In this document: piece after piece, positions 1,576-41,318 of the stretch
Layout: every line of letters starts with the position of its first letter
Numbering within the stretch: the first letter of the stretch is position 1
DNA from: Folioceros fuciformis
Lineage: Eukaryota
Length of the DNA stretch: 41,318 nt
Direction: 5' to 3'
Assembly (NCBI GenBank): GCA_049999805.1
Contig: JBNGIO010005421.1
Location: 1 to 41,318, forward strand
Program-made: the position numbers and the translations under genes
The notes under the pieces: model-generated
Seen by the model: the letters and a program-made list of their open reading frames with translations, nothing else
What the model was told of the DNA's origin: nothing
Database searches by the model: none

Positions 1576-2905
1576 TGTAGTGCATTGGACTAGAGTGCAC
1601 CGATCTACCGGCGCACTCTGGTCCTGCATGGGCAGCAGTGAGCCGGTAGACCGGCGCACTGAAGCCCGAGACTACAGCAGTGCACTAGTCTACTAGCGCA
1701 ATTGGGGCCGAACCGGCACTAGTGTGCCTCAAGGCGTAGCCCAAGCACCCAGTGCTCTCAAGGCCTTAAAGAGATACTGAACTCAACTCAAGAGTACAGA
1801 ACTGTCCTTAGCCCTTGGCTAGGTCCCCTTTTATACACAAGCTCTAGTCACTAACTTAGCAATTACTTACTTAAGCCTTAAGCTATTATTCACTACTACA
1901 CACTTTCCTAGGGCTGCTTGCTTTTCATGCTTTTAGTAACCTGCTCTGCTAAGCATGCCTCTGCATGGAGCTTACTTGCTTGGCACTCAAATCAGCGTTG
2001 TTACTTTCTCCCCCACTAGGAAAGAATCGCTGCCCTTAGTGATAACCAGTGTAACGAGCAATCATCTAGGAGCCTCTCTGGATATCCTCTAATGTTACCC
2101 AAACTAGTGTTGAGATCCCATGCAACTTTACCATGTATTGTGGTAGAGTTCCACGTCTCGTAGCCACGCTACCTTCTGCAAGGAATTCCTCAATCTCCCG
2201 CAGTCCTTGATCATTCTGCACCAGGATACTGTACTTCTTCCTGTCTATGTCCTCTTTCCCTTTACCTAGTACAAATGGTTTCAACATAGATACATAAAAC
2301 ACATTGTGTGCAAAAATCCAGTCAGGCAAGTCTAACTTGTAAGCCACTTCTCCAATGCGCTTCAAGACAACATATGGACCTCCATACTTTGGTCTCAACT
2401 TCAAAGACAATCCTTGGGGTAGTGTGAAATGCTTCAGTTTCACCCGAACCTTATCCCCAACATTGAAGACAATTTCTCTCCTGTGCTTATTAGCATATCT
2501 CTTTTGACGTGCTTGAGCCTTGGCTAATATCTTTTGGGCAACCTCATGCCTAGCCTTCAACTGCTCAACAAATTGGCATGGATCTCTGGTGGTAGTGTCG
2601 AAAACTTCAACATTTAACATGGATGTCACATTCAAAGCTGAATTTCCACTCATCTCAAAGGGACTACATCCCATGGAGCTATGTACTGTATTATTGTAAC
2701 AAAACTCCGCATCATCAAGATGATTAGCTCTATCTCTCTGATCAATCTGCACATATTGCCTCAAATATTCTTCTTGGATTCGGTTGACTCACTTAGTTAA
2801 CCCATCAGTATCTGGATGGTTTACAGTACTTATGCATAGTTGCACATTCAAACTCTTCATCAATTGCTACTAGAACTCTTTTGTGAATCTTGGATCTCTA
2901 TCACT
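1576..2905 (-). mobile_element. Truncated Ty3/gypsy (chromovirus-like) retrotransposon: integrase C-terminus, chromodomain-like tail, PPT and 3' LTR
   Basis: Minus strand reads SDRDPRFT (~2880-2905), [42 protein letters not shown] and a chromo-like tail (ORF 2066-2764). Polypurine tract AGTGGGGGAGAAAG at ~2004-2017. LTR-like segment with a TATA box runs down to ~1576 (boundary uncertain). Confidence 0.8.
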
Positions 2906-3184
2906 CAATCATTGGCTACTTACTCTAGTATATTAGGATATATTAGGATATATTAGGATATATTAGGATATTGCACTCTCGCATTTAGGGCTTACCTTCT
3001 CAATAGTTGTCTAGTAAAGGCTATATCTATAGCAGGTGCTGTGCACCATATTGCTTTGTATTGTTGAGTCCATATAAGCAAGTGGTGCTATTACGTATGC
3101 CATCCATAGCCTCTGCTTGTGTCTACTAACTGTGTTCATCTTATGTGTTGCCCAAGCTCTGTTGTGTCTAAGCTGTTTCTTTCA
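2905..3184 (+). repeat. Copia 5' LTR (first ~10 nt missing), with internal (TATTAGGATA)x4
   Basis: Aligns by eye with 5941-6184 and ends AGCTGTTTCTTTCA directly before the PBS. Confidence 0.85.
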
Positions 3185-3388
3185 TGGTATCAGAGCAGGA
3201 GCACTAATCGCGAGACTTGATAAGAGAGGACGGAGTTGTGATGGCGATGGGCTCAGTAACCACTGCGGCCTTGAGGACGCGGGTGTTTGATCCATGAAGG
3301 TTCTACTGATGGCAGAGAACACATATGGCATTGCCGATGGCAAAGAGCCGAAACCCGAAGATGAGGGGAAAAAGAGCAGAGAGAATGG

Positions 3389-4420
3389 ATGCAGATAGAC
3401 CACAAGGGTACTGCTCTCCTATATATGAATCTCTCTACGGCAGTCCAGCTGAAGGTCGGAGAACCAGACAAGGGCACGGAGTACATTTGGGATCTTCTTG
3501 ATAAGAAATATGGCCAAAAGGGAGTAGGTCAAGTATTTCACTTGTTTTGTCGTGTGAGAACATTAAAGTATTCAAACGGAGACGATTTGCGAAAGCACAA
3601 CGACACCTTTCATGAACTGTTTACAACGCTAGCATCAGCTAACGAGCGCTTTGCTATCCAAGAGGACATGCAGAAGATGTTTCTACATCGTTCTATGCCC
3701 GAAGCTTGGTCAGGGTTCATAGATTTTCTAATAGCCCAAGATACTCTCATATGGGAGGAGGTTACCTTTAAGATGTTGGCGAAGGAGACTTGCCAATCAG
3801 ACGCAATGGCGGGATCTTCAACTAGTTCGGAGCATGCGGTGTTCATCAAGGGGAAGGGACGGACCAAATGGAACAAGGACAAGCAAGGGGAGTCCTCGCA
3901 GGGACAGAAGGACAAGAGAATAGTGAAGATGGAACAATGCCGGAAATGCTTCAAGTATGGTCATTATGAGAAGGATTGCAAGGATTGGAAGACCGCACAT
4001 CTCATGGAGGGTGAGAGTAAAGGTGAGGTTGCGGAGGCAACGCTCATAGAAGAAGTATCGCACGCGTGCGACAGTACACAAACGAAACGATACCTAACGA
4101 TAGATTCTGCATGTATATCCTTTATGGTAAAGGATAAGAAGCTGCTTCAAGACTATAGGAGGGAGAAGATAGTGGTGCGCCTGAGGAATGATAGCGAGAT
4201 AGGCGTGGAGGGTGTGGGGGAGTATAGGCTCAGATTGCTCAACGACGAGGTCAAGGCAATGGAAGGAGCGCTGTCTGTACCGCATCTATGTAGAAATCTC
4301 ATGTCCGTGGCATCATTGACCGATGCAAGTCTGCAGGTCCTTTTTACAAAGAAGGAAGTTTTGTTTCTGAAGAATGGACAAATGCACATGCGATGTGGTG
4401 GCAAAAGGCCACCAGTATAA
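3389..4420 (+). pseudogene. Copia gag-protease ORF remnant
   Basis: 343-aa ORF with copia gag, zinc knuckle and aspartic protease motifs (VPHLCRNLMSV). The downstream pol is disrupted. Confidence 0.85.
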
Positions 4421-5779
4421 GGAACTTATACTAGATGGAGGTTCCTAACGACCAAGAGGTTTTGACAATGTCGGAGAATGGTGGAAATGCCTTACTGTGG
4501 CATAAACGGTTTGGGCATATCAACTTGAAGTTTCTCCTGGAGATGGAGCAGAAGAAGCTTGTGACAGAAATGGAGCTCTAGAAGGTAGAACTTGGTTTTT
4601 GTGACGCTTGCATGAAAGGCAAGCACCCCCGAAGATCTTATGTTTCAATCACGTAAAGAGCAAAAGAAGTCTTGGAAATTGTCCACTTTGATCTTTGTGG
4701 ACCAATGCAAGTGGAAGCAAGGAGGATATAGGCGAAATACTATATTTCGTTTATTGATGACAGGAGAACAGCGGTGTACTTCCTGCGGAAGAAGAGTGAC
4801 GCTCTCCAAGCATTTCAGATGTTCAGGGCGACTGTGGAGAAACAAATTGAAAAGAAGTTGAAGAAACGTCGAACTAATAGGGGAGGAGAGTATTTGAGTA
4901 AACTCTTCAAGGATGAATGCACAGCGGCCAAAATTGAGAGGCAGTTGACGACAAGGTACACATCGCAATAGGCAGGGATTACCGAGCAGAAGAATTGTAC
5001 CATCTGCAATGGCGCTAGGAGTATGCTAGTGGAAAGCAGGCTGCCAAAATATTTTTGGGTAGATATAGTGGCAGCGGCAGTACAGGTACAGAATATGTTA
5101 ATTACCATGGCGCTAGGTGGCTCCACGACTCCCCATGAAGCTTGGTTTGGTGAGAAACCAAATGTTTCACACTTGAGAGTGTTTGGCTATGTAGCATATA
5201 TGCATGTTCCTAAGCAACTGCGGAAGAAGTTGGATGACAGAAGCATCAAGTGCAGCTTCATGGGTTATGCGAATGAGCGAAAGGCTTACAAATTGTGGGA
5301 TCCCGTCAGCAAGCAGATGTATGAAAGTTCTGATGTCGTGTTCGCTGAGAGCAACTTCGGAAGTCATGCGGAGAGCACGACTATTTACACGGATCTCGAC
5401 TCTGAGTTTATCCAGGACACCTTCCTTGTTCTAGATCCACCAACGATAGCAGTAGAGGATCACCACACACTGAAGGGTGATGTAAGGACATCCTAGCAGG
5501 TGAGGTCGTACCACCTATTGTTCCCATAAGAATTCTTGAAGAAGGAAACCTAGAAGGAGCACAACAACAGCAGCTAGTTAAGGAGTTAGTTCCAGATGGT
5601 CGACAAGGGTCCGACTGCCTTCGTGGAAGGCCCTTCAGAATGCCCAGCTCAACATGGTGAGCAGACGAGAATGGTGTCTTCTTCTTGAAGATGATATCCC
5701 GCTCACAATTGAGGAAGCACGAAACGGACTTGAAGATCTCATACCTCCGTATCGAGGAGATAGTGGCGGATACCTTTAG

Positions 5780-6236: not shown

Positions 6237-6246
6237 NNNNNNNNNN
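6237..6246. other. Assembly gap (10 N)
   Basis: Run of n. Confidence 1.
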
Positions 6247-7026
6247 TGCAAGGCGTTCATGCTCAGAATGTGAGGAAATTCGGTGTTGATGGAAGCAGAT
6301 ACATGCGGTTTGAGAACTGTAAAGTTTGGTTCCGGGTGCTTAATGTCAGCAGAGCAATTTTCACTTCGGTTTCGGTAGCGCGAGAGCACCCTGCTGTGTT
6401 GGATTGTCGTTTGCTTGGCAGTGCGTCTGTTTTTTCCCCTGGCAGATGGTGGCTGGGACGTCATGTAAGATCATTTCACTGGTGTCGTGTACTATCGGTG
6501 TCCCAGATCAATGTGATCCGACTCTGTGCTGTCAACTTGTGCTGAAGTGCTCTGTTGATGTCCATTCTTCGCGTCCTTAGCCCGTGGCCTGTGACGTGAG
6601 TTCCATGCACCTCTCGGAATTTGATTCCTCGTTGCAGATAGCTGGCAGTGCACTTCCTTGTCCTGTTGCTAGTGCACATTTCCCCTGGAACTATGCAAGT
6701 CTCTGGTCTAGGTTTTATGGCGTTGTTACCCTAATGCTTGAGCTGATGCTTTCTCCTGCAACGGTCAATACTTCTTCATGTAGCTGCACACGCATGTTTG
6801 GCAGGCCTTTGCCTTTTATCCTGTTCCTGAGTAGCAAAAGTTTCCTTCCCAACTCATGCCTGAACTCTTTTTGAAGCAGAGGCTTTGGTTGATGGTTGTG
6901 AACCCCTGAGCCTAGAGAGGTCATTATGTCTGGTGCAGGCAACGGTGTTTTACTCTGTTGGCATCAGCGTTGATCGGGTTCCGCTCTCGTGACTTCAGAT
7001 TGTATGGAATTCTTCCTTCCGAGGCT

Positions 7027-18041: not shown

Positions 18042-21000
18042 TTAAGACCAGTATAGCTTTCCAGTGAGTGAGCTGACGAACTGGGGACACTGCACGTTCT
18101 GCATTTCGGTGACGTCGCGAGTCACTCTTGTTAGAATGCTCATCACATCTTCGGTACGAGAGTGGTCAATGATGGCTCTCACGAAAGCTACGATGAAGTT
18201 TGTGCCTTCCTCCACATTTCTGAAGGATAAATCTCCAGGACTAGTAGAGAAGACGGTGAGAATATCTTTCGCCTGATACAAGGGTCGAGTTCTCTTGTTG
18301 AGACCCTGCCTTCCCTCAACCTCTGACCCCTTGCCTTTGCTGGTAGTGGCAAGGTCGGCGGGGCCCGACCCCTGTGCTTTCATGCTTTTGACAAGACGGC
18401 CAGTTCCTCGACAAGCATTTATGACAACCACCTTAGGCTTGTGCGCCAAATACTTGCATTCAGCGATGGGCTTCAAAATATCTTCTTCAACATTAAGCTT
18501 CTCCGCATTGTCTGGTTCACCTGAGAAAACATACTGCCTTCCGTCTTCATCAGTCCCACCATGGGCGTTCACGCAAAACAGAAAGCAGTCGTCTTCTGCT
18601 AGGTGCGGGACCCTGAGAACGGCTTTCAACCTTGATTTCCCTTCCTTAGGACCGTTCACAACGATATCTATATCAAAATTCAACATCTGGAAGAGAGCTT
18701 CAAGTCGCCCTCTGTCTACCTGTCCTCCATGTCTGTGGTCTTCCATGCTGACAATCATTGCAAGCCCTCTCCGGTGACCTGCTTTCGCCCTTTCGTTTGG
18801 ATATGAATGTTCCTTCCCTAACTTCAGTATGGGCGGTACCTGTGGCTGACTTGTTCCAGCTGAAGGGCCACTCGTTGCGTCGAGGGACGGACGTGGCCCA
18901 CACTGCTGCAAAGCAGACTGCACCTCTTCGCTACTTAACAGATCCCTGGCTTTCTCGTACACAAGGGATAGACCAGCTTCAGGCATTTCTGGCCAGCACC
19001 ATTGATAATCGGAGCAATCCGAGCCGGAGGAAGTCTGCTCTGCATGGCTTTTGTGATGATGTAGAAAGCAATTAATCAAATGCTGGTTGAGAACCGATTG
19101 ACTGTGTCGGTGAATACAGAGTGTGAGCTTCTCCACACACTCAGTCCTGATGATCCCTTCTACTAGTTCAACTCCAGGACTACCTTCAGGAGAGGCACAA
19201 AATGCTCTCAGTTCCGCAACAATACTCTGCTGGAGAAACTGGATCGTTTCGTCTTTGCTCTTGAGTGACCTCATCAAAATGTCCACACGATCCCCAATGT
19301 CCCCGGTCTCGTCCCGAATATCCCCATTGCTCTCCAAAAACACGTCCATACCATCGTAGTTAAATCTGATCAAGTTACGCGCAATGCTATACTGATGAGA
19401 CTGCATACCGCAGAGCGCATCGAACAAGATCTGTCGTAACTTGACCTGCAATGCACAAGCAATGGCCATGTCATAAAACGCAAGAGAGGTTGTATGACTA
19501 ACAAAAGAGACAGCTCAGACGGCAACGTACCTGGAATCTTGGAAAGCAGCCTGGACCGAGAAATGTCTTTGTTTCATCTCGGCATTGTAGCCGCCTGCCT
19601 ACGTAATTGTACTTGGACGCCGCACCACTTTTCCAGTCCAACTGTCGTTTCCCTTGAAGAGCTTTACCTTCGGCGTCATCCAAGGTGAAGGGAACGAAAA
19701 ATCCAGGCCTTGGATTCGCATCATCTCGATAGCACAAGTTTAGTCTCATCATCAATGATACCAAATCTTCAACACGAATCCTGTCGGCCACGTGGGTGTC
19801 CTTGAGGATCCGGGCCAAGGTGTCGTTGAGGAGGTCTTCAGCAACAAATCCACGGTCTCGCGATCTCCCCAAGGAAGGCTGTCCGGCTAGGCGCTCAATG
19901 AGATGGCCCAGGAACGAATGACTGATCCAGTGTGGATTTACCACCACAGCATCTGCATCTGCATCTGCATCTTGGAACCAGATGACCCGGCCTGCATTGT
20001 GCAGATAGGCAAGAATTGCTTGAAGGCGTTGCTCATCATCTTCTTCAACAACCTTTTTGCATCTCTCCTTGGTCACCAGAGGCTGACCTGGATTTTGAGA
20101 TACCCAGTGAGTCAAAGCAGCACTCAATCGATTGCACGCCTTCGGAACCCAAAACAGAGGAAGCGCAAACAGCTCTCGAAAAGATTGGAATAGCTCCTCC
20201 AGCAAAGGCTGCGCAGTCTGTTTAGATCGAGCATCCATGAAGAAAGGCGCTGTCCTGATAAGAAGTACCTCCTTGAAAGTCTTGGCCAAGTCTTCCACGA
20301 CTGGTTGCAGCAGACCAACCAGTAATTTGGCGTCCAGATCCTCCATCCGATCCTTATGAGTGACAACCACAAACACCCGAGGCAAACAGGAACCCACGTT
20401 GCGAGAATTGGAGTGGATGAATCTTAGCCAAAACTTGAAGCCGTTTCTGAACTTGTCCAGCAGCATTTCATCGGACGGAAGGGGTTCACCAGGCTTGTGG
20501 GCATCAAGTGGGTTATATGTGAACAGGAAGACACATGTCTGGTTGAAGCTGGGGAACAAGTAGTCTTGCAGAGCTCGGTAGTGAGCTTGTCCAGCCAGAT
20601 CCCAAATGGTAACTTCCATCTCGTCGTCGTTGCGCAGCACCTCGATTTCTATGCCTTCCGTTCTGGGGACAGTTCCCACCACCTGGTTGGATGATGCGGC
20701 TCCTATGAGTGAAACATCACCGAACCAGGAACCATTCCAAGCTAGAGACATTTGTTCCCACAATTGGACTTGGTTGGCGGATGCGGCGGCTCCTGTAACT
20801 GAAACATCGCCGAACCAGGAACCATTCCAAGCTAGAGACAGTTGTTCCCACAATTGGACTCGCTTGGCTGATGCGGCTCCTGTACAATGTGATGTGTGTG
20901 GTTGCGATGCGCGCCATGCGGTGATCATGGTGTTTCGGAGAGTGGTCTTCCCTGCGTAAGGTGCACCGCACAGGAAAAGGCGGCCGACCCTGGGCTTCAC

Positions 21001-22338
21001 AGCCTCTTGCCCCTCCAAAAGCAAAGGCCAGTAGGTCCTGTGACTAACATTGCGTGCCAACGTCGCGTTGATGATGGCCTGCTTTCCCTCTTCCTCCCAG
21101 TTTGTGAAGTCTACGTCGATCTTCTGTAAAGTGGTGTTGACCTGGAGGGACTGCATCAACTCTCTGAACAGCTCATCGTCGAGTCCCCAGCAAGACTGAA
21201 AGCTGAGCTTATTCAAAGATGTATTTTTCTCCAAAGACTGCACCAACGCTTCCATGAAAGAGGGCTCGTTTATCTCGAAGAAACTCAGGATGCGTAATGA
21301 TTTGCATTTCAGAAACGACATCGAAAATTCACTTAACAACTCGTCACCGTAATAGTCGTACAACGTAAGTGTGGAGAGGGTGGAGTTGTGGCGCCAGGCG
21401 TCCAGGCCGAACTTGACAACAAAACAGCTGATCGTAAGGTCCGTGATGCAATCGTTGGTGCGCAACATTCCGGCCAGCGCGTCGGCCAGGCCTGGCTCCT
21501 CTTTGTTCCCGATACGCAACGTCAGCTTGGTGACCCCAGATATGGGGGCATCAGCCTCAGCATCAGCACGGGTGAAAGCCAGTTTCAACACAGTGCTCAT
21601 GGGCCCCAGGCTGCCCTGTACGGAACCCCTAACTGCATCACGTTCATCCCGATTGCCATCATCCAAGTAAAGCTCCCGGAGCGAGGCACACAGCGGCAAT
21701 GCCTTTGCAATACACTGGGCTCCCGCCTCATCCACGCGGATGCCCCGCAGATCCAGGACATTGAGACGGGGAGCGGTGGCCAGCATGCGAGCCATGTGCT
21801 GTGCCCCTTCACCATCTCCCACACTGTTCCGGCTTATGTCCAAATACTCCAGGACAGAATCCTGGTTGAAGCCATCGACCAGGGCACCAAGTCCAGCGGC
21901 ATCAAGCCTGATCACGCTTGCCTTCAGCTGTCGCAAGCTGCGACTAGAAGCAATAAGCTGGCCCAGGGCCTTGCAACCCGCCAGCCTTCCAAAACCTTCG
22001 CAATCATCCAGATCAAGAGCTTCAAGGGAAGGGTTGGATGCCAGGCCCTCCAACAGAACCGCGCATTCATCCTCCCGACCGATGCCGGTTTCCCACCGTT
22101 CAGATATCTTCAGGCGGCCGCGGAGACTGCGGCACTGGCCAATAGCTGTCAATACCCGCTTGCGCACTCGCCAGTGCCTGCCATCCGTGCTCGTTGAAGC
22201 TCCCTTTCTGAAGAAATCGCCGTACTCCTTGTTGTGCAATTCGGGGAGTTTGGTCAAGGCGGGCCCTTCCAGATCTTCCAGCAGCTGTTGCAGCTTTTCC
22301 GGCAACTCGCGCCAGTCATAGTCCTCCTGCTCCGCCAT
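18042..22338 (-). CDS. LRR-ROC-COR (TORNADO1-like ROCO) protein fused to a C-terminal caspase-type peptidase C14 domain; 1403 aa; exons 22338-19531 and 19445-18042
   Basis: RI-like LRRs; P-loop GAPYAGKTT, RTEGIEI, IWDLAGQ, VVTHKD; COR (LAYLHNAGRVIWF, VVVNPHW, FFVP, GRRLQC, FPRFQ|VKL). An 85-nt phase-0 GT-AG intron joins the two ORFs. Protease motifs DCFLFCVNAHGG and KPKVVVINACRG, and small-subunit motifs FSTSPGDLSFRN, GTNFI, QCPQFVSSL. Confidence 0.92.
20690..20885 (-). repeat. In-frame 90-nt (30-aa) tandem duplication inside the ROC domain
   Basis: VQLWEQLSLAWNGSWFGDVS and VQLWEQMSLAWNGSWFGDVS; GAAACATC(A/G)CCGAACCAGGA occurs at 20711 and 20801. Confidence 0.93.
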
Positions 22339-22419
22339 GCTGTGCTAAGCTGCGCTTCCCAATGCAAGCAAATATGATGAATGGAAAGTATGTATCATCC
22401 GTTTTGTAGCAGGGGCAGC

Positions 22420-33299: not shown

Positions 33300-33900
33300 A
33301 GGGTACTAACCTAACAACCTAAAGCACCAAGAGACCTGGGAACCTTTTCAAAAGCCAAACCTCGAAACCTAAAACCAGAAGACCAACCTCGAAACCTAAA
33401 ACACCAAAAGACCAACCTCGAAACCTAAAGCACCAATGACCAATCTGGCAACCTAAAACACCAAGAGACCAACCTAGCAAAATCAAGAGACTAACCTAGC
33501 NNNNNNNNNNTAAAACACCAAGAGACCAACCTAGCAAAATCAAGAGACTAACCTAGCAAATTAAAACACCAAGAGACCAACCTGGAAACTCAAAACACCA
33601 AGAGACCAACCTGGAAACCCAAAACACCAAGAGACCAGCCTAGCAACCCTAGCTACACCAAGAGATCAACCTAATAACCCTAGCTACAGCAATAGACCAA
33701 CCTAGCAACCTGAAACAAAAAGAGACCAACCTAGCAACCTCAAACGCCAAGACAACAAGAAACCAACCTAGCAACCTTAAACACCAAGAGACCAACCTAG
33801 CAGCCTCAAACACCAAGAGACCACCCTAGGACACAAAGAAACTATCCTAACAACTTAAAACGCCAAGAGACCACCCTAGGACACAAAGAGGCCAACCTTA
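33300..33900. repeat. ~29-30 bp satellite (AAAACACCAAGAGACCAACCTAGCAACCT), with a 10-N gap at 33501-33510
   Basis: Read directly; the true array length is unknown because of the gap. Confidence 0.92.
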
Positions 33901-34059: not shown

Positions 34060-34370
34060 TCACAAGCTTGTCTCGGTCTGAAACATCAAAGAAAACGGCA
34101 GCAGATCCAGTCGCCTCTCCGTTTCGGGATGAGACGCGATTTTCAGCACAGGAACTGGACAAGTTCTTGCAAGTTCTTCCTTCGTCTCCGACGAAAGAAT
34201 TCCTTTTGGGCCCCGACAGATTGATGATCCTACCGTCGCGTGTGAAGCCCTACCTGGCTATCCAGTACTTTGTGAACACCACTTGCATCTCCCGTCTTAG
34301 CAGGAAACTGCTGTGGCCTGATGCAGGCCTGGCATTGTCCACAGCATCGTGCAAGCCACTGCAAGAGCCC
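34060..34370 (-). pseudogene. Inverted, heavily decayed copy of the secreted 3D/MltA-like gene
   Basis: Reverse strand reads LWTMPGLHQATAVSC*...VFTKYWIAR...DGRIINLSGPKRNSFVGDEGRT...GSAAVFFDVSDR, matching the 35240 copy. A TATAAA lies just upstream (~34375-34380, minus strand). Confidence 0.78.
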
Positions 34371-35239
34371 GTGCTTTATAGCTTGGATGTCTTGATGAAG
34401 CTGGAGACGAGAAGCCTGTTGGATCTCTATCATGGGTGTGCATGATGGGATCCTGTAGTGCCTGACAGTCCTCAGCCCGACCCGACGTTGAAAGCCCGAG
34501 ATCGGTGATGGTGAAAGCTTACTTATTAATTAGCCTCGCTTTGTTCCGGCCGAATCCCTGCACAGGAGAAGAGACGAATTCGAAGTCGGGCCGTTCCAAC
34601 TGCGCATTAATAGTTGCACAGCAGTACAGCAGCGGACACAGTCCCTTGTGCAGATGTCGATCGGTCGGAAGAGAAGACGAAGTCCCATGGATGGATGTCA
34701 CTCGTTCAAAAGAGAGAGGACGAAGATCAGTATCTGCTGCTCGTCCAAACGCGTCAGAGGACGAAGACCCAATGGAGATGTCAGGACGAGGTCCCATTCC
34801 CATGTCCTGCTGTCACCCGTTCAAACGAGGACAGCACAGAAGTCAAAGCTGGTGGGTTGCAACGGCTTAAATGTGCACTTCAAGCGGATATTTGAATTTC
34901 AAAGCTGTTTTCTTCTGACAATGCGTCGCAGGCTGCAGGCGCATTCTATGCTCCCCCTGCAGGATCCTAGAGCCTAGACATTATGGGATTAGAACCTAGT
35001 GTACCTCCACCAGTACTACTCCAGTCAAGCAGTCACCTTCTAGACGCTGATATGATGCAACTGGTATACACTATCCACTGGCTGCAGTAATCTACACTCC
35101 CCAGCTTGCCAAGCGTGTCTAGGCGGGCAATATAAACCTTGAGCGGATCATCAATGCCTAATCCTGTGCCAGCTTGGGGACATTTCGTTGCCCCCATCCA
35201 CACATCCTTTAGAGGAAACGAGCTCGAAAACAACGACCG

Positions 35240-35869
35240 ATGGCCACCACCAGCAACAGCAGGCTTGTGTCTTGCACTGGCTGCTTGACTCCTATGGACG
35301 CTGGCAGGTCTGCACCAAGCCAACGGATCCTGCTACAACGGCAAGGGAGACCTCATATTCACCAAGTACTGGGTCGTAAGGGATTGTTCCAGGACGAACG
35401 AGACGGACGAGGACGATTATCACCCTGAGTGGACCCAAAACTAAGGCGATCGTCGGGGGAGACGGCAAGACCATCGTCAGGGTGGATGTCAATACCTACG
35501 GCAAGCGTGTGGAGGAAGGAACGTGCCTTCTCAGCAATGGGGACCTCATCAACGCGGGCAGCGCGTCGGACGTGTTTGAGATCCTTGACAGGTCCAATTA
35601 CCCTTTCGGACAATGCGCGTTCTCAAACGCGCTGGTGCCGTATGTGAGTGTGGCCACCGTCGATCTCCCCCTCACCAAGCTCTATGTTCGGGAGCTGCAT
35701 AATGTGAGACTTCGCAATGGAAAAATCCACAGCGGATGCGTCCGGGTGCAGTTGCCACATCGATTTCTTCGTCAAGTTCTTCACACACTACAAGGCACTG
35801 GATGACGTTCTGCCTGACACCGCCCATTCCGTGATCGAGCCTGATTGCCACATCCTCTCCTACACTTGA
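35240..35869 (+). pseudogene. Stand-alone secreted 3D/MltA-like domain gene, frameshifted
   Basis: SCYNGKGDLIFTKYWV...LSGPKTKAIVGGDGKTI...EEGTCLLSNGDLIN...YPFG...NALVPYVSVA...LYVRELHNVRLRNGKIHSGCVRV (deletion and frameshift) SCHIDFFV...CHILSYT*. Colinear with the RLK ectodomain; TATAAA at ~35131. Confidence 0.85.
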
Positions 35870-36272
35870 TCCGATCTTGTCTGAAGGTCTGCATAGCTGT
35901 GTGCAAGCGTAGCCTTTGACAATTAGAAAAGATGGGCTAGAGGGGCACTATCAAGCTAGCTAGCTAGCTATGGAAAACAGACCACGAAGGTGAGGCAGAT
36001 TGGGAGCAAAGTGCCTTGGATGTTCATGAAGCTTTGTGCCCATGAAGTGGGTCTTGCAAGCTCAGTCTAAGAGCAGAATTAGGCCGCCATACCCACTTTA
36101 ACTTAAGCTCCTTCACCCACCATTAGATCAAGGTTGTCAGAACTCGGATTGCGAGGGAGGCATAGGAAAGGTAAGAACATGCAAGTGTCTTAAGAGGGAC
36201 CTGTGCAGTATCCCGTTCTCCACAAACTACCATAGTCGTGGGTGATGGCCTCGTTTAACACAGTCTGCTATC

Positions 36273-36346
36273 GCCTTGCTTAACATACGATCATGAACTC
36301 GTAAATGATTGCCTTGCTTAACATACGATCATGAACTCGTAAATGA
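36273..36346. repeat. 38-bp direct tandem duplication
   Basis: GCCTTGCTTAACATACGATCATGAACTCGTAAATGA occurs twice. Confidence 0.93.
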
Positions 36347-37094
36347 ATCTCTCTCCATATCGACAGAGCCCCATTGATCAGTGGAGCATGATGTGTGACG
36401 ATGATTATAGGATGATGTACGACGATTTAATTCAAGCAGGTTCATGGAGAAATATTTCCTCATGCTTCATAACTTGCGCCGTTCCGCGTGCTTGCACTGC
36501 CACAACTGTGTGCTGCTCATAGGCTGGATCCTCGAGGACGCCATTTAGCAGGGAAGTATTAGACTGTCTGTGCAGCATCCTCGGCTAGGTCACCGGCAAG
36601 ATATCTATGTACGTGTACGTAGCAGGGAAACCTTTATATGTATATCAGACTGGAGTCCGAGCAGCTCGATGTGACAGCACCGCAGACACGATAGAACTGG
36701 TACCTATCTACAGTTGACGAGCAGTAGCTTGAAAGGCGTGTTAAGCATGAGCTAAGACGAGTACTGTACTTCTCTGTTTCCTTAAGATGGTGCACCTGGT
36801 TCTAATGCTCCGTTGGATTGTGGGCTTGGCGGGTCGATTCTGCTGTTGCTTACCCCTTGAAGACGATGCTCAATCTGATCAGTGGTACTCTTAGACCCTT
36901 GGCTGTGTACATCAAAGCAGCGACTGATGGTTACGTGCTGGCAGCAGCCACTCAGAGGTGTGGATGTCTCTGGCCGTCATCCTTTGACCATCAGAATTAT
37001 CTTCAAGACTGGATGTCTGCTGGATGTACCGGGCCTCAAGGCTGTAACTGCTCGATGTATTCTGGGTTCCTGAGACCGCCAATTTGCATCCAGG

Positions 37095-39593
37095 ATGAAG
37101 TGGTTTTGTTGGGTTGTTCTGGTCTTGGCATACCAGATTATCCCACCGCATTGGAGAATCGATGCACAGGATGATCTGGTTCCCACCTGCTACACTCAAG
37201 GAGCCAAAAATGCGACTTTGGATTTCTACTGGATCGCAAAAGAGGGAACCGAAGACGCCCAATCCTACTGGGCACCCCGTCTCCACCTGGGATCAGGGCC
37301 GAAAAACAACACTCTCGTGGCTGACGACGGCTCTTTGATTGCGATGGTAGACACAGCCACTGAAGGCAGGTGCTTGGACTTGGGTACTTGCCTTCTTGAT
37401 AATGGGCAACTCATCAACCTTGGCTTCACCTCTAGTACCTTCCGGTTTCTGGACAAGACAAATTTCCCTTTCGGCATCGGCTTCTGGAGCAATCCTCTTG
37501 TGCCATTCGTTAGTGTGGGAAATCAATTGCCGTTCCATACGACTCTGTGTATCAAGGAGCTGGAAAACTGGAAGCTTCCCAACAACAAGACGCACAATGG
37601 ATGCGTTCGTGTAGACGACTACAGTGGAAACGACATGTCTGAAGCCTGTCATGTGACGTTCTTTGTGCTGGAGTTTGCTTTCTTCGATCGGATGCTGGCT
37701 GCCAACCTCCCGACAAAAGTCACTGCAAGTATCTGTCGTTGCAAGATCCTGGACTACACAACCCAAGACATGTATGCGTTTGTGGATGGTAAACGTGAAG
37801 CTTCTACCTTTTGCACACACAACCTGTTTGAGCAGGTTGGAGACGTGCATTCAAGGAACAATTCTCTGTGACGGGGATCATGATGTTTTTGGATGTGCGG
37901 ACGTTTTTGTCTTGCAGTTGGTCCACCTTCGAAAGGATCATCACACGTAATAGTGTGGGTGGGCGTTGCATTGGGTGTTGTACTTTTGCTGGCTATGGTG
38001 GGCCTCCTGGGCTTCTGTTGCCTGAAGACGAAGTGCTGTCACGAGCAGATCGAGCACCTCTCATTGATGTCGGGCCGTAGAGATGTGGAAGGTGAAGACG
38101 AGAAGCACCTTACTTGTAACCATCTGGAGTAACAAGAATACTTTGTGCTCGTCAGATTCATCTCCAAAGTATGGCTACCTGGCAGGACCGGAGGATGCGT
38201 CCGTTTCCTCAGCTCACAAAGACCTCGGAGCCGGTCTCCAAATGTTTTCCCTCAGCTCTATGCAGTTAGCTACAGCGAGATTCAATGTTCGAAACAAGCT
38301 GGGCGAAGGAGGCTTTGGTGTTGTATACAAGGTGCGTAAAGAGTTGCAGCAATGACATCGGGCTCAAGCAGCATTCCTAACTACATGTCTATGTTGGGGG
38401 GTTGTTCTTCTCCTTGGCAGGGAGTTTTGCCGGATGGGACAGAAGTGGCAGTGAAGCAAATGGCAAAGACCGGTTCCTCAAGGCAAGGAACACCCGAGTT
38501 CATGAATGAGGTGGCTCTAATCGGACAGTCACAGCATAGGAACTTGGTGAGGCTTTACGGGTACTGTCTAGAAGGTGAAGAGAGGCTGTTGGTGTACGAA
38601 TTCATGGAAAAGGGAAACCTCCATCAAGCACTTTTTGGTACCCTTAAAAGCTGCATAGCTTCATTCATCGACACAAGTCATGGAGCTGTTCCTTCTCTTA
38701 AGCATGATAAGCTGAGATTTTCTATTATCTGCAGAGCAGGAGCGGCTTCCGCTCTCCTGGAAGGCTCGTTTCAACATCATTCTGGGAACTGCCAAAGGTC
38801 TGGCCTACCTTCATCAAAGCCAAAGAAGGATAGTCCATCGTGATATCAAGGCCAGCAATGTGCTCCTAGACAAACATCTGCAGCCAAAAATATCTGATTT
38901 CGGGCTTGCCAAGTTCTTTCTGGAAGAAAAAAGTCATGTCAGTACCAGGGTTGCCGGCACCGTGTAAGCAATGCACCTCTCTTAAGCATCACATAGTTAC
39001 TGAACTGGATCTTGAAAGGTCCCTCTTCACCACTTGGTGTTGGTTGATGCCGTGTGCACTCAGAGGCTACCTTGCACCTGAATACGCCTTGACGGGGCAG
39101 CTCACAGAGAAAGCAGACATCTTCAGCTTTGGAGTGCTGGTTTTGGAAGTGGTCAGTGGTCGAAGAAACTTGGATTTCAGAAACACCAATGCACCAGTGT
39201 TTCTGCTTGAATGGGTAGAATTCCAGATATAACCCAGAACCCATACACAATGCACTCAATATTCATCCCGCATCGAAACACTAACAAGCCCTGAACCTGC
39301 AGGCATGGGACAGGTACGAAGAAGGTGAACCTCAAGACACCCTCGACCCCAGGATTAAGGACGACCCTGAAGCTGCACCCGAGGAAGTCTTCAAGTTGGT
39401 GCATATTGCTCTTCTCTGTGCACAAGGAACACCCCAGAGGCGGCCCAGCATCAAAGAAGTCATTTCTATGTTGGAGGGCCACACTGAATGTACCTCAGAG
39501 CCATCCAGGCCTGAATTTCTGAAAAACACTTCTTCCATCCTGCAGTCCAGTAGTTTCGTGGAAGGTTGGCAGTTTTTGCAACCTCGTACATAA
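37095..39593 (+). CDS. Receptor-like kinase with a 3D/MltA-like ectodomain (643 aa; exons 37095-37788, 37918-38091, 38156-38331, 38421-38637, 38735-38963, 39064-39214, 39303-39593)
   Basis: Signal peptide; ~200-aa Cys-containing ectodomain; TM ([25 protein letters not shown]); kinase motifs [33 protein letters not shown]. All six introns are GT-AG and the summed CDS (1932 nt) is in frame. Confidence 0.92.
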
Positions 39594-39713
39594 GTACAGA
39601 TCGGAATGCTGGCTGTGAATCCAGTCCTAGAACGATGTGCACCAACATCCGGAACAGTCTCATTGTTCCCTGTGTACAAGTCGTAAGCTAAGCCCAGTCG
39701 GTTCATTTTTATA

Positions 39714-39927
39714 GCTTCAAGCAACACAAGAGTTCCAAGCTTTAAGCAACACAAGAGTTCCAAGCTTCAAGCAACACAAGAGCTCCAAGCTTCAAGCAAC
39801 ACAAGAGCTCCAAGCTTCAAGCAACACAAGAGTTCCAAGCTTCAAGCAAAACAAGAGCTCCAAGCTTCAAGCAACACAAGAGTTCCAAGCTTCAAGCAAA
39901 ACAAGAGCTCCAAGCTTCAAGCAACAC
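39714..39927. repeat. 25-bp minisatellite (GCTTCAAGCAACACAAGAG[T/C]TCCAA) x~8.5
   Basis: Read directly; starts about 120 nt after the RLK stop codon. Confidence 0.96.
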
Positions 39928-40159
39928 CAGGCCATGAAACAAAAGGCACAGCAACCATCCCGTCTACAAAGATGGGTGCTGTTCCTTCCACATTTCATCA
40001 ACATATATTATTTAAAAATCATTAATTAATACTTTTAATCTAATGCTTAAGAATCTCCATGTTGTAAAGAATTTTCCATCTCATATGCATGCGAGCAGCT
40101 CTCTCTCAAGAGATCCTTCTTGATTCAAGTTAAAGCCTCATATCATCCTCCACCTCTCC

Positions 40160-40630
40160 ATGGCGAGATTACAAACTATGTTTATCTTGATGTTGTTTCA
40201 CACTTTAGTCCATTGTAAGCAATCTTCCGAAACACAAACCATACATCTTGTCGACTTCAATTCATGGATGCTAATGGAGCAAGACTGTGGATACAACACA
40301 AATGTATTCTCACCAGAGGACCCAATACTCCGTCAACTTCCACTTATGCTAATAAAGTTAGCTTTGCGAGGAGCAGACAAAGCTGTGAGGTTGAAGAGAA
40401 ACTACTATATGACAGAATATGCACTTATGGGAGTGGAATCTAGCTTATTTTGGGGCATGGCTGGGTGTGAGAATAATCCGCCTTTCGAAAAATGCCTTAA
40501 TTGTCTTCTCTATGTTTCAAGCGCCATTCAGAATGCTTGCCCAATGGCAAAAGAAGCTCATTATGTGGTGTTTGATTGTCATATTTATTATTCTTTTTTA
40601 TTGAAATGCTATCCTCCAAAAACTACATGA
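40160..40630 (+). CDS. Secreted single-DUF26 (Gnk2-like / stress-antifungal) protein
   Basis: Signal peptide; C-X8-C-X2-C motif (CENNPPFEKCLNC) followed by ACP...A.....DC..YYS. Confidence 0.82.
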   Translation: MARLQTMFILMLFHTLVHCKQSSETQTIHLVDFNSWMLMEQDCGYNTNVFSPEDPILRQLPLMLIKLALRGADKAVRLKRNYYMTEYALMGVESSLFWGMAGCENNPPFEKCLNCLLYVSSAIQNACPMAKEAHYVVFDCHIYYSFLLKCYPPKTT

Positions 40631-41318
40631 GAGATTGTAATCTATTAGATCATAAAATATTCATTAATCGTATCCTAAAGGTTATAGATGGCCTAACTTC
40701 TTAACCTAGGGTTATTTCTTTTCTTTTTTGCTTCCAAAATATTCAAAATTATGTACTAAATTTACATAATTCTAAGTTCATAGGTATTCATTCTATAAAT
40801 AAATTTAAAATATGGTATAAAATTTGAAATATGGCAACATCATTAATTGAGAGAGCATTTTTAAGCTTCATTTTTTATAATTTTTAATTATTAATTCTTA
40901 CATAAATTTATAAATTTATAGTAAGGTTCTAAGTATTCATTAGTTTGGATAATGTTCAAGCATGCATCAACTTTAGATCTTATTGAGTGTTTATTAATCT
41001 AGTTAATCAAAACTTATTATCATAGTATTAATTGAGAGATCCAAAATCATATAAATCAATCCCTAATTAAATTAATATAATATTATTTATTGGATAAATT
41101 ATTTTGATAAACTACCCTAAGAAAAAAAAACTATAAAGCATCTTTAAAATATATATTTTAATCTTGCTCATTAAGAAAATAGCCCCGATAAACCCTAAAC
41201 CCTTTTACTTGTCGCTCTTTTTAATTAATTCTCCTTTATCATAGCTTTCCAAATTTTTGGAGTCCCATAAGAAAGTAGTTTCTTGAATGAAAGACCTAGT
41301 GGCAAACTTTAAATCATG

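Follow-up and report, generated by a model that had tools for sequence, protein, structure and literature searches.

The 41,318-nucleotide stretch of Folioceros fuciformis DNA analysed here (NCBI GenBank assembly GCA_049999805.1, contig JBNGIO010005421.1, positions 1 to 41,318 of the forward strand), referred to as the window, carries at 37095-39593 a seven-exon gene for a receptor kinase whose extracellular domain is modelled as an MltA-type lytic transglycosylase fold, and in which Thr188 occupies the position of the catalytic Asp. A pseudogene of a free copy of the same domain lies upstream of the receptor, together with a relic of what may be a third copy. The features on which the analysis depends are the following, in window coordinates.

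37095..37788, + strand: receptor exon 1, encoding the signal peptide (about residues 1-24) and the MltA-like ectodomain (about residues 28-230); from the open reading frame (ORF), the AlphaFold model, the top matches to MltA and the spliced contig
37918..38091, + strand: receptor exon 2, encoding the linker, the transmembrane helix and the start of the juxtamembrane part; from the joints of the spliced contig and the translation
38186-38331, 38421-38637, 38735-38963, 39064-39214 and 39303-39593, + strand: receptor exons 3-7, encoding the protein kinase domain and the C-terminal tail; from the spliced contig
37789-37917, 38092-38185, 38332-38420, 38638-38734, 38964-39063 and 39215-39302, + strand: receptor introns, adjusted to GT-AG
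37221..37223, + strand: D43, in place of the Thr carried by 90% of the family (TxYW strand), the likely equivalent of MltA T99; from the conserved columns, by shared motif only
37380..37382, + strand: L96, in place of the Glu carried by 91% of the family (EGT motif); from the conserved columns
37614..37619, + strand: D174-D175, of which D175 aligns with MltA D297 and is kept; from hhalign, with the role of D297 taken from PMC4499186
37656..37658, + strand: codon ACG for T188, which aligns with the catalytic Asp, D308, of E. coli MltA; from hhalign and from Asp in 145 of 153 homologues
35240..35869, + strand: pseudogene of a free, secreted-type copy of the domain; from tblastn, a three-frame read and a hidden Markov model (HMM) scan
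35753..35773, + strand: CHIDFFV of the pseudogene, with the Asp retained
34142..34294, - strand: weak match to the N-terminal strand region, interrupted by an in-frame stop and taken as the relic of a third copy; from tblastn (E value 0.017) and HMM (i-E value 0.029)

The receptor gene is real, transcribed and spliced. A single contig from sequencing run X3 joins 37749-37787 with six further blocks over six GT-AG gaps, a second X3 contig spans 37004-37767 with 0 letters differing from the window, and the six splice joints are absent from the contigs of the DNA runs X1 and X2. Run X3, which contains 41% of the sampled words of 35200-39650, carried the label 'RNA?' by guess, and none of the runs listed for this DNA is recorded as RNA; it is read as RNA because six GT-AG introns retained in the DNA runs are missing from its contig. 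The spliced product has 633 amino acids, its stop codon ends at 39593, and it consists of a hydrophobic N-terminus, a domain of about 200 residues, a linker, a hydrophobic stretch and a kinase. Kinase similarity was detected on exons 4, 5 and 6 (Pfam Pkinase and PK_Tyr_Ser-Thr; E values 5e-14 to 6e-6), and the kinase motifs, including GxGxx and APE, are seen in the translation. With a signal peptide and a single transmembrane helix, both called by eye rather than taken from predictor output, and a cytoplasmic kinase bearing the catalytic motifs, the product has the architecture of the receptor-like kinase (RLK)/Pelle family. Just downstream of the stop codon, units of about 24 bases (caagcaacacaagagttccaagctt and variants) form a tandem array at 39700-39930.

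The earlier note on this DNA had assigned the ectodomain to the MltA/3D family, and this assignment is borne out by the predicted fold and by distant profile comparison, while it falls short of the Pfam threshold. The AlphaFold2 model of the ectodomain, for which the input was a 26-row alignment, has a predicted local distance difference test (pLDDT) score of 89 and a predicted template modelling (pTM) score of 0.83. When the model was compared with the PDB using Foldseek, ranks 1-11 were all MltA-type lytic transglycosylases (E values 1.9e-4 to 4.4e-3; probability 0.97-1.00). A run of VIA-align over 48,161 representative chains, independent of Foldseek, returned the MltA proteins from Agrobacterium (2pnw; Z 10.2, 160 aligned residues, root-mean-square deviation [rmsd] 3.7), E. 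coli (2pi8; Z 9.8, 164 aligned residues, rmsd 4.6), Neisseria (2g6g; Z 9.0) and Acinetobacter (7esj; Z 8.7), with YuiC at Z 6.8. Expansins, barwin, kiwellin and cerato-platanins share the barrel with the ectodomain (Z 5.0-6.2), but they lack the inserted domain of MltA, score well below it and belong to other sequence families. Several of these plant and fungal double-psi beta-barrel proteins bind or loosen without hydrolysis. A feature search of the ESM Atlas returned Mucoromycota proteins (0.95), a Zoopagomycota cluster named '3d domain protein' (0.94) and a bacterial cluster of which 93% is PF06725 (0.93). According to the model, the ectodomain has the MltA fold, in which a double-psi beta-barrel carries an inserted domain. 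A sequence search of the PDB with the 26-row profile gave low-complexity matches only, and a DUF1181 match on the ectodomain (E value 0.0099 in Pfam) lay below the cut-off and was taken as noise.

At the sequence level the ectodomain belongs to a family found in early-diverging fungi. A word-indexed search provided 26 homologues, and an exhaustive search of 1.84 billion representatives provided 180 at an E value of 1e-3 or less and 10 at 1e-30 or less, with the best matches reaching an E value of 5e-40 and 46-48% identity. Every homologue that bears a name comes from an early-diverging fungus (Jimgerdemannia, Endogone, Bifiguratus, Mucor, Umbelopsis, Rhizopus, Phycomyces, Gilbertella, Choanephora, Radiomyces, Mycotypha, Basidiobolus, Dimargaris, Hyaloraphidium and the chytrids Nowakowskiella, Lobulomyces and Clydaea), and no land-plant member is among the names. 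A few of these fungal homologues carry the UniRef label '3D domain-containing protein'. The receptor ectodomain and these secreted fungal proteins form a true sequence family, with 22 of 29 conserved columns in common; unlike the receptor, the fungal proteins are free, measure about 200-400 amino acids and keep T43, E96 and D188.

The active-site positions were located by comparison with E. coli MltA, taken from NC_000913.3, in which Asp 281, 317 and 328 of the precursor become D261, D297 and D308 upon subtraction of the 20-residue lipoprotein signal. The 100-row family profile was aligned by hhalign with E. coli MltA itself (probability 69%; E value 4.3e-5) and with a 25-row MltA profile consisting of Enterobacterales only, at 71-86% identity to the E. 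coli protein (probability 81%; E value 1.2e-5). Both runs set A-C-H-V-T over G-Q-H-F-D, placing T188 on D308, and V-D-D-Y over A-L-D-V, placing D175 on D297. The HMMER comparison of the family profile with the YuiC chains was weak (E value 0.26) and had the same register, with T188 at YuiC D162. The proposal in the earlier note that the receptor Thr sits at the position of the catalytic Asp is supported by two agreeing profile-profile runs, in which the two positions do align. N144 was placed on D261 (YuiC D129), where the family reads N-D and the receptor N-Q, at a site where the placement of the gap is unsure. Hhalign run with greedy settings gave no extension to the N-terminal strand or to the EGT motif.

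According to PMC4499186, D308 is catalytic in MltA, D297 (YuiC D151) contacts the N-acetyl nitrogen of the -2 sugar, and the G-G-A-I-K-G segment of MltA lines the -1 subsite. The same source describes a Thr (T99 in MltA, T91 in YuiC) that orients the catalytic Asp as one of a hydrogen-bonded pair, and a D308A mutant of MltA that holds uncleaved chitohexaose (2PI8). As in MltA (E. coli; 2AE0 and 2PI8) and the minimal YuiC (B. subtilis; 4WLI), the receptor ectodomain would have a two-domain fold, a double-psi beta-barrel with an insert, and it has the same order of motifs, namely a TxY strand, an SVA..GT strand, a D-x-G loop and an H-x-D-x-[FY] strand, with the D297 equivalent kept. It differs from both in having Thr for the catalytic Asp, in a structural-alignment identity of about 11-15%, in its conserved cysteines, in the fusion to a transmembrane helix and kinase, and in being eukaryotic.

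The letters of the receptor are those reported earlier, with the motif stretch beginning at 37590 and the Thr codon (ACG) at 37656-37658 of the + strand. This codon differs from GAT and GAC at all three bases. The letters of T188 are identical in the RNA-type X3 contig and in the X1 and X2 DNA contigs, and therefore the Thr is not a read error. When the window and 168 homologues were aligned with hmmalign, 145 of the 153 homologues not gapped at column 188 had Asp; the full tally, window included, is D 145, gap 15, T 4 (the window among these), H 2, A 1, R 1 and I 1, and among the 97 family rows used for conservation the column is Asp in 97%. Judging from these alignments, Thr at position 188 is more than a chance departure. 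An N-x-T sequon (NNKT in the receptor at 37584-37592, NNET in its closest relative, P0001) stands directly before the invariant His-Asn-Gly-Cys, at a place where the family reads N-G-K-T; it is possible that an N-glycan would be carried there, at the entrance to the former active site.

The change at 188 is accompanied by others. Among the 97 family rows, 29 columns are conserved at 80% or more, and the receptor is off consensus at seven of these (family to receptor: T43D, E96L, A142G, G148H, G158N, D188T and Y197F). The Thr of TxYW that is D43 in the receptor occurs in 90% of 82 rows. The 22 columns at which the receptor follows the consensus include all Cys, most Gly and Pro, Y45, W46, H167, N168 and D174/D175, and T98 is kept as well. 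The closest relative, P0001, is 48% identical to the receptor and is grouped with it at a support of 98 in a quick tree and 100/99 in a careful tree. At positions 43, 96, 142, 148, 158, 188 and 197 it has M, I, A, R, N, A and S, respectively, so that it departs at six of the seven receptor-deviant columns, the three polar columns (43, 96 and 188) among them, and none of those three bears an acid. A tail, YTT[QP]DMYAFV[DN]G, which follows the last strand of the domain, is nearly identical in the two sequences; it forms the linker ending at the first intron in the receptor, and it is missing from the free-type homologues, which end at I-L-x-Y. Because of this shared linker tail, P0001 is probably exon 1 of an orthologous receptor. 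The loop from D175 to 188 is 2-4 residues longer in both the receptor and P0001, and the G-W-S-F of the family, the counterpart of G-G-A-I-K-G in MltA, is missing from it. Loss of the three near-invariant polar residues fits a pseudo-enzyme.

The upstream copy has a different history. The earlier note had described it as a stand-alone copy that keeps the Asp, and CHIDFFV is indeed present, at 35753-35773, one base before the start of 35754 given there; the copy itself is a pseudogene. Its pieces (35277-35396, 35413-35748 and 35750-35890) lie in three frames, its only ATG (35240) is out of frame with the domain, and there is a TGA in the signal-peptide-like stretch. The frame shifts near 35413 and at 35749-35752, and at the second shift four bases replace the eight profile positions 176-183, the Asp-Asp pair included. 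With these frame changes, the stop and the deletion of the Asp-Asp loop, the copy cannot be the active counterpart of the receptor. Short introns that might restore the frame were considered and rejected, the gaps being only 17 and 4 bases. The X1 and X2 contigs have the same letters over the region, free of gaps, although they come from one sample that is possibly the source of the assembly and are not independent of it; X3 has no cover over 35200-36988, which has no bearing on expression. The seven-exon receptor and a 948-codon ORF stay open in the same assembly.

Since T43, E96, A142, D188 and Y197 of the family are retained in the pseudogene, its residues indicate that it is descended from an enzyme-type free gene and not from the receptor exon. 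The careful tree places it with P0031, P0032 and P0042 (support 62/91). P0031 and P0032, both intact and free, terminate in I-L-H-Y and have retained E96, the Asp-Asp pair and D188; position 43 is T in P0031, Asn in P0032 and His in P0042, which has Arg at 188. Between the pseudogene and the receptor, at 36270-36345, a stretch of about 40 bases (gccttgcttaacatacgatcatgaactcgtaaatga) occurs twice in tandem; there the contig depth doubles and the short-read contigs break. Upstream of the third-copy relic, at 33300-33850 of the - strand, short ORFs have repetitive translations rich in Trp, Leu and Gly (WSLGVLG..., WFLVVLAFEV...), which suggests a degenerate tandem repeat.

A contrast between kinase-fused and free forms of the domain, as anticipated in the earlier note, holds in its direction, the free homologues having Asp in 145 of 153 cases, and its fused side consists of one proven gene and one probable gene. 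A metagenome scan returned 18 loci, of which 16 cover position 188, with 12 Asp, 2 Asn and 2 Thr, where the two Asn loci are possibly one sequence, as are the two Thr loci, and the Thr alignments are gapped. A receptor-like transmembrane or kinase part was found at none of the 18 loci. Likewise, in a search for longer, fused homologues none of 425 candidates reached an E value of 0.01 or less, which is weak evidence, and the combination of a transmembrane helix with an RLK kinase was found in none of the 150 homologue matches listed. In the partial protein P0057 from Bifiguratus adelaidae (431 amino acids), the domain is cut short a little beyond the Asp-Asp pair and is followed by a Ser/Thr kinase of cytoplasmic type with no transmembrane helix; a merged gene model seems a better account of P0057 than a true fusion.

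Phylogenetic analysis is consistent with a fungal source. The quick tree puts the receptor and P0001 inside a 46-row clade (starred in that tree) with all named Mucoromycota rows and some chytrid rows, and in a careful tree of 68 rows Endogone, Jimgerdemannia and Bifiguratus share a weakly supported 12-row clade (61/86) with the receptor pair and the group of the pseudogene. When the six plant-locus-like rows were forced into one clade, a group picked after the tree had been seen, the likelihood was 5.2 units above that of the free search (approximately unbiased test, p-AU 0.63). These results would fit a single acquisition from a Mucoromycota-like fungus with subsequent duplication and fusion, but are not proof of it. 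The fuller scenario, in which the gene of a secreted enzyme that cleaves wall glycans came from a Mucoromycota-like fungus into a land-plant lineage and underwent tandem duplication, one copy becoming fused to an RLK kinase and losing catalysis and the free copy then decaying at this locus, and in which the outcome is a new class of receptor, without LysM, for glycans that contain GlcNAc, such as chitin or peptidoglycan fragments that possibly senses fungal partners or pathogens, is one that we offer tentatively and consider rather unlikely as a whole.

Taken together, the observations lead us to propose, as a probable and well supported but unproven interpretation, that the ectodomain is a pseudo-enzyme which binds rather than cleaves its ligand and signals through the intact RD-type kinase. 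The ectodomain would derive from a secreted MltA/3D-type glycan-cleaving family known otherwise from early-diverging fungi. With the catalytic Asp now Thr, the Thr that should orient it now Asp, the near-invariant Glu now Leu and the loop between the Asp residues longer, cleavage would be lost. The ligand may then sit in the old substrate groove, and its binding would be relayed to the kinase. Retention of D175, T98, Y45, W46 and H167 suggests that the groove is still in use, and because of the substrates of MltA and YuiC we speculate that the ligand is perhaps a glycan containing N-acetylglucosamine (GlcNAc), such as chitin or a peptidoglycan fragment. The natural D-to-T change would parallel the D308A form of MltA that holds chitohexaose.

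Several points weigh against this interpretation. Neither of the Pfam models 3D (PF06725) and MltA (PF03562) matches the receptor at E values up to 1, and the 3D model gives a weak match to 3 of 26 relatives (best E value 0.059). The hhalign alignments reach residues 113-190, the C-terminal half only, so that the equivalences of T43 with T99 and of E96 with Q162 lie outside their span and come from motif likeness. There is one proven kinase-fused case. The guess at the ligand is by analogy with MltA and YuiC and not with the fungal family itself, and with E96 and the GWSF loop altered, both of which probably line sugar subsites, binding of GlcNAc glycans may have been lost as well. Lastly, D43 together with T188 resembles a reciprocal swap of the hydrogen-bonded pair that might keep a carboxylate, and the lengthened loop brings in D180 and E183.

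This last point leads to the explanation that the ectodomain is still an enzyme, the carboxylate having moved from 188 to 43, or D174, D180 or E183 acting as a substitute, and the ligand being cleaved. It would account for T43 having become D along with the change of D188 to T, at positions whose side chains should touch if the pairing of T99 or T91 with the catalytic Asp, as described in PMC4499186, applies here, and D174/D175 are retained. Yet E96 is lost as well, the equivalence with T99 is by motif only, and P0001 has M43 with A188 and thus an acid at neither position, an argument that counts for the clade and not for this gene; other rows that lack Asp at 188 also lack Asp at 43 (P0042 with His, and P0151 with Ser, the latter read by eye). 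We consider continued cleavage improbable. Slightly less improbable, to our mind, and still unlikely, is that the domain is a repurposed scaffold that binds a protein or peptide ligand or a co-receptor, or serves as a mere spacer, with the sugar groove idle. Groove positions (E96, the loop after D175 and G158, now N) are changed in both the receptor and P0001, and both receptor-type sequences have the sequon before the invariant His, points that speak for this explanation; on the other hand, D175, Y45, W46, T98, H167, N168 and the cysteines are kept, as would be expected if the groove matters.

Two further explanations concern the integrity of the genes. The upstream copy could be functional, its frame changes being assembly errors, odd introns or programmed frameshifts, so that an active enzyme would stand beside an inactive receptor. 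The family residues at 43, 96, 142, 188 and 197 that it keeps would agree with this, but an ATG out of frame, a TGA, two more frame changes with no room for introns and eight lost profile positions, identical letters in the X1 and X2 contigs, and the intact state of the neighbouring seven-exon gene and of the 948-codon ORF make it very improbable. Equally remote is the idea that the receptor itself is decaying and that the changes in its ectodomain are relaxed drift with no function. Although 7 of the 29 conserved columns have changed, the frame stays open throughout the seven exons, splicing of the transcript is seen and every kinase motif is intact; the 22 other conserved columns are kept, including all Cys, Gly and Pro among those, and the linker is nearly identical in P0001 despite an overall identity of 48%. 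A pseudo-enzyme ectodomain that binds and signals through the kinase is the interpretation that we favour.

The window is nuclear DNA from a green land plant. Elsewhere it codes for a chlorophyll a/b-binding protein, a GT43 glycosyltransferase and a KUP-type potassium transporter, and contains the following features.

40160-40630: intronless ORF with a Stress-antifung/DUF26 match (Pfam E value 1.6e-5) and a signal-peptide-like start
18045-22344, - strand: two adjacent long ORFs, one with leucine-rich repeats (LRR), Roc and COR-A (948 codons), the other a caspase-type Peptidase_C14 (490 codons)
2069-5493, both strands: pieces of long terminal repeat (LTR) retroelements, with copia-type gag, Pol beta-barrel and integrase SH3-like parts on the + strand and a Tf2-1-like SH3 on the - strand

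The G+C content drops from about 48% to 32% over 39980-41318, an AT-rich part that bears the DUF26 ORF. From their domains, the LRR/Roc/COR-A and caspase ORFs are possibly one ROCO-caspase gene. A short run of N at about 6240-6250 appears as XXXX in two overlapping ORF translations.

To our knowledge, the types of ectodomain found in plant receptor kinases are few and mostly long known. LysM receptor kinases of the CERK1/LYK type sense GlcNAc-containing glycans; the receptor described here has no LysM domain, and a functional analogy with them is possible at most. A parallel exists with tobacco CHRK1 and other receptor kinases with a GH18 ectodomain, which likewise combine a plant receptor kinase with an ectodomain from a glycan-cleaving family. 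CHRK1 reportedly lacks the catalytic Glu and has no chitinase activity (Kim et al.). The folds are unrelated, GH18 being a TIM barrel as opposed to the double-psi barrel predicted here. In the review PMC5485988, 91 plant sequences are described as combining a GH18 ectodomain with a kinase. Enzyme-derived ectodomains of receptor kinases are already known, of the GH18 type. Among the papers listed by literature searches there was none on an RLK with an MltA/3D or lytic transglycosylase ectodomain, two incidental co-mentions apart, and none that joins '3D domain', MltA and fungi.

If the proposed reading is true, the receptor of F. fuciformis would represent a further type of receptor kinase ectodomain, recruited from a lytic-transglycosylase-like family of early-diverging fungi. 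Its catalytic Asp would have been replaced as in the laboratory substrate-trapping mutant of MltA, which would make it a natural test case of the conversion of an enzyme into a sensor, and the locus may record a gene transfer from fungus to plant followed by domain fusion.

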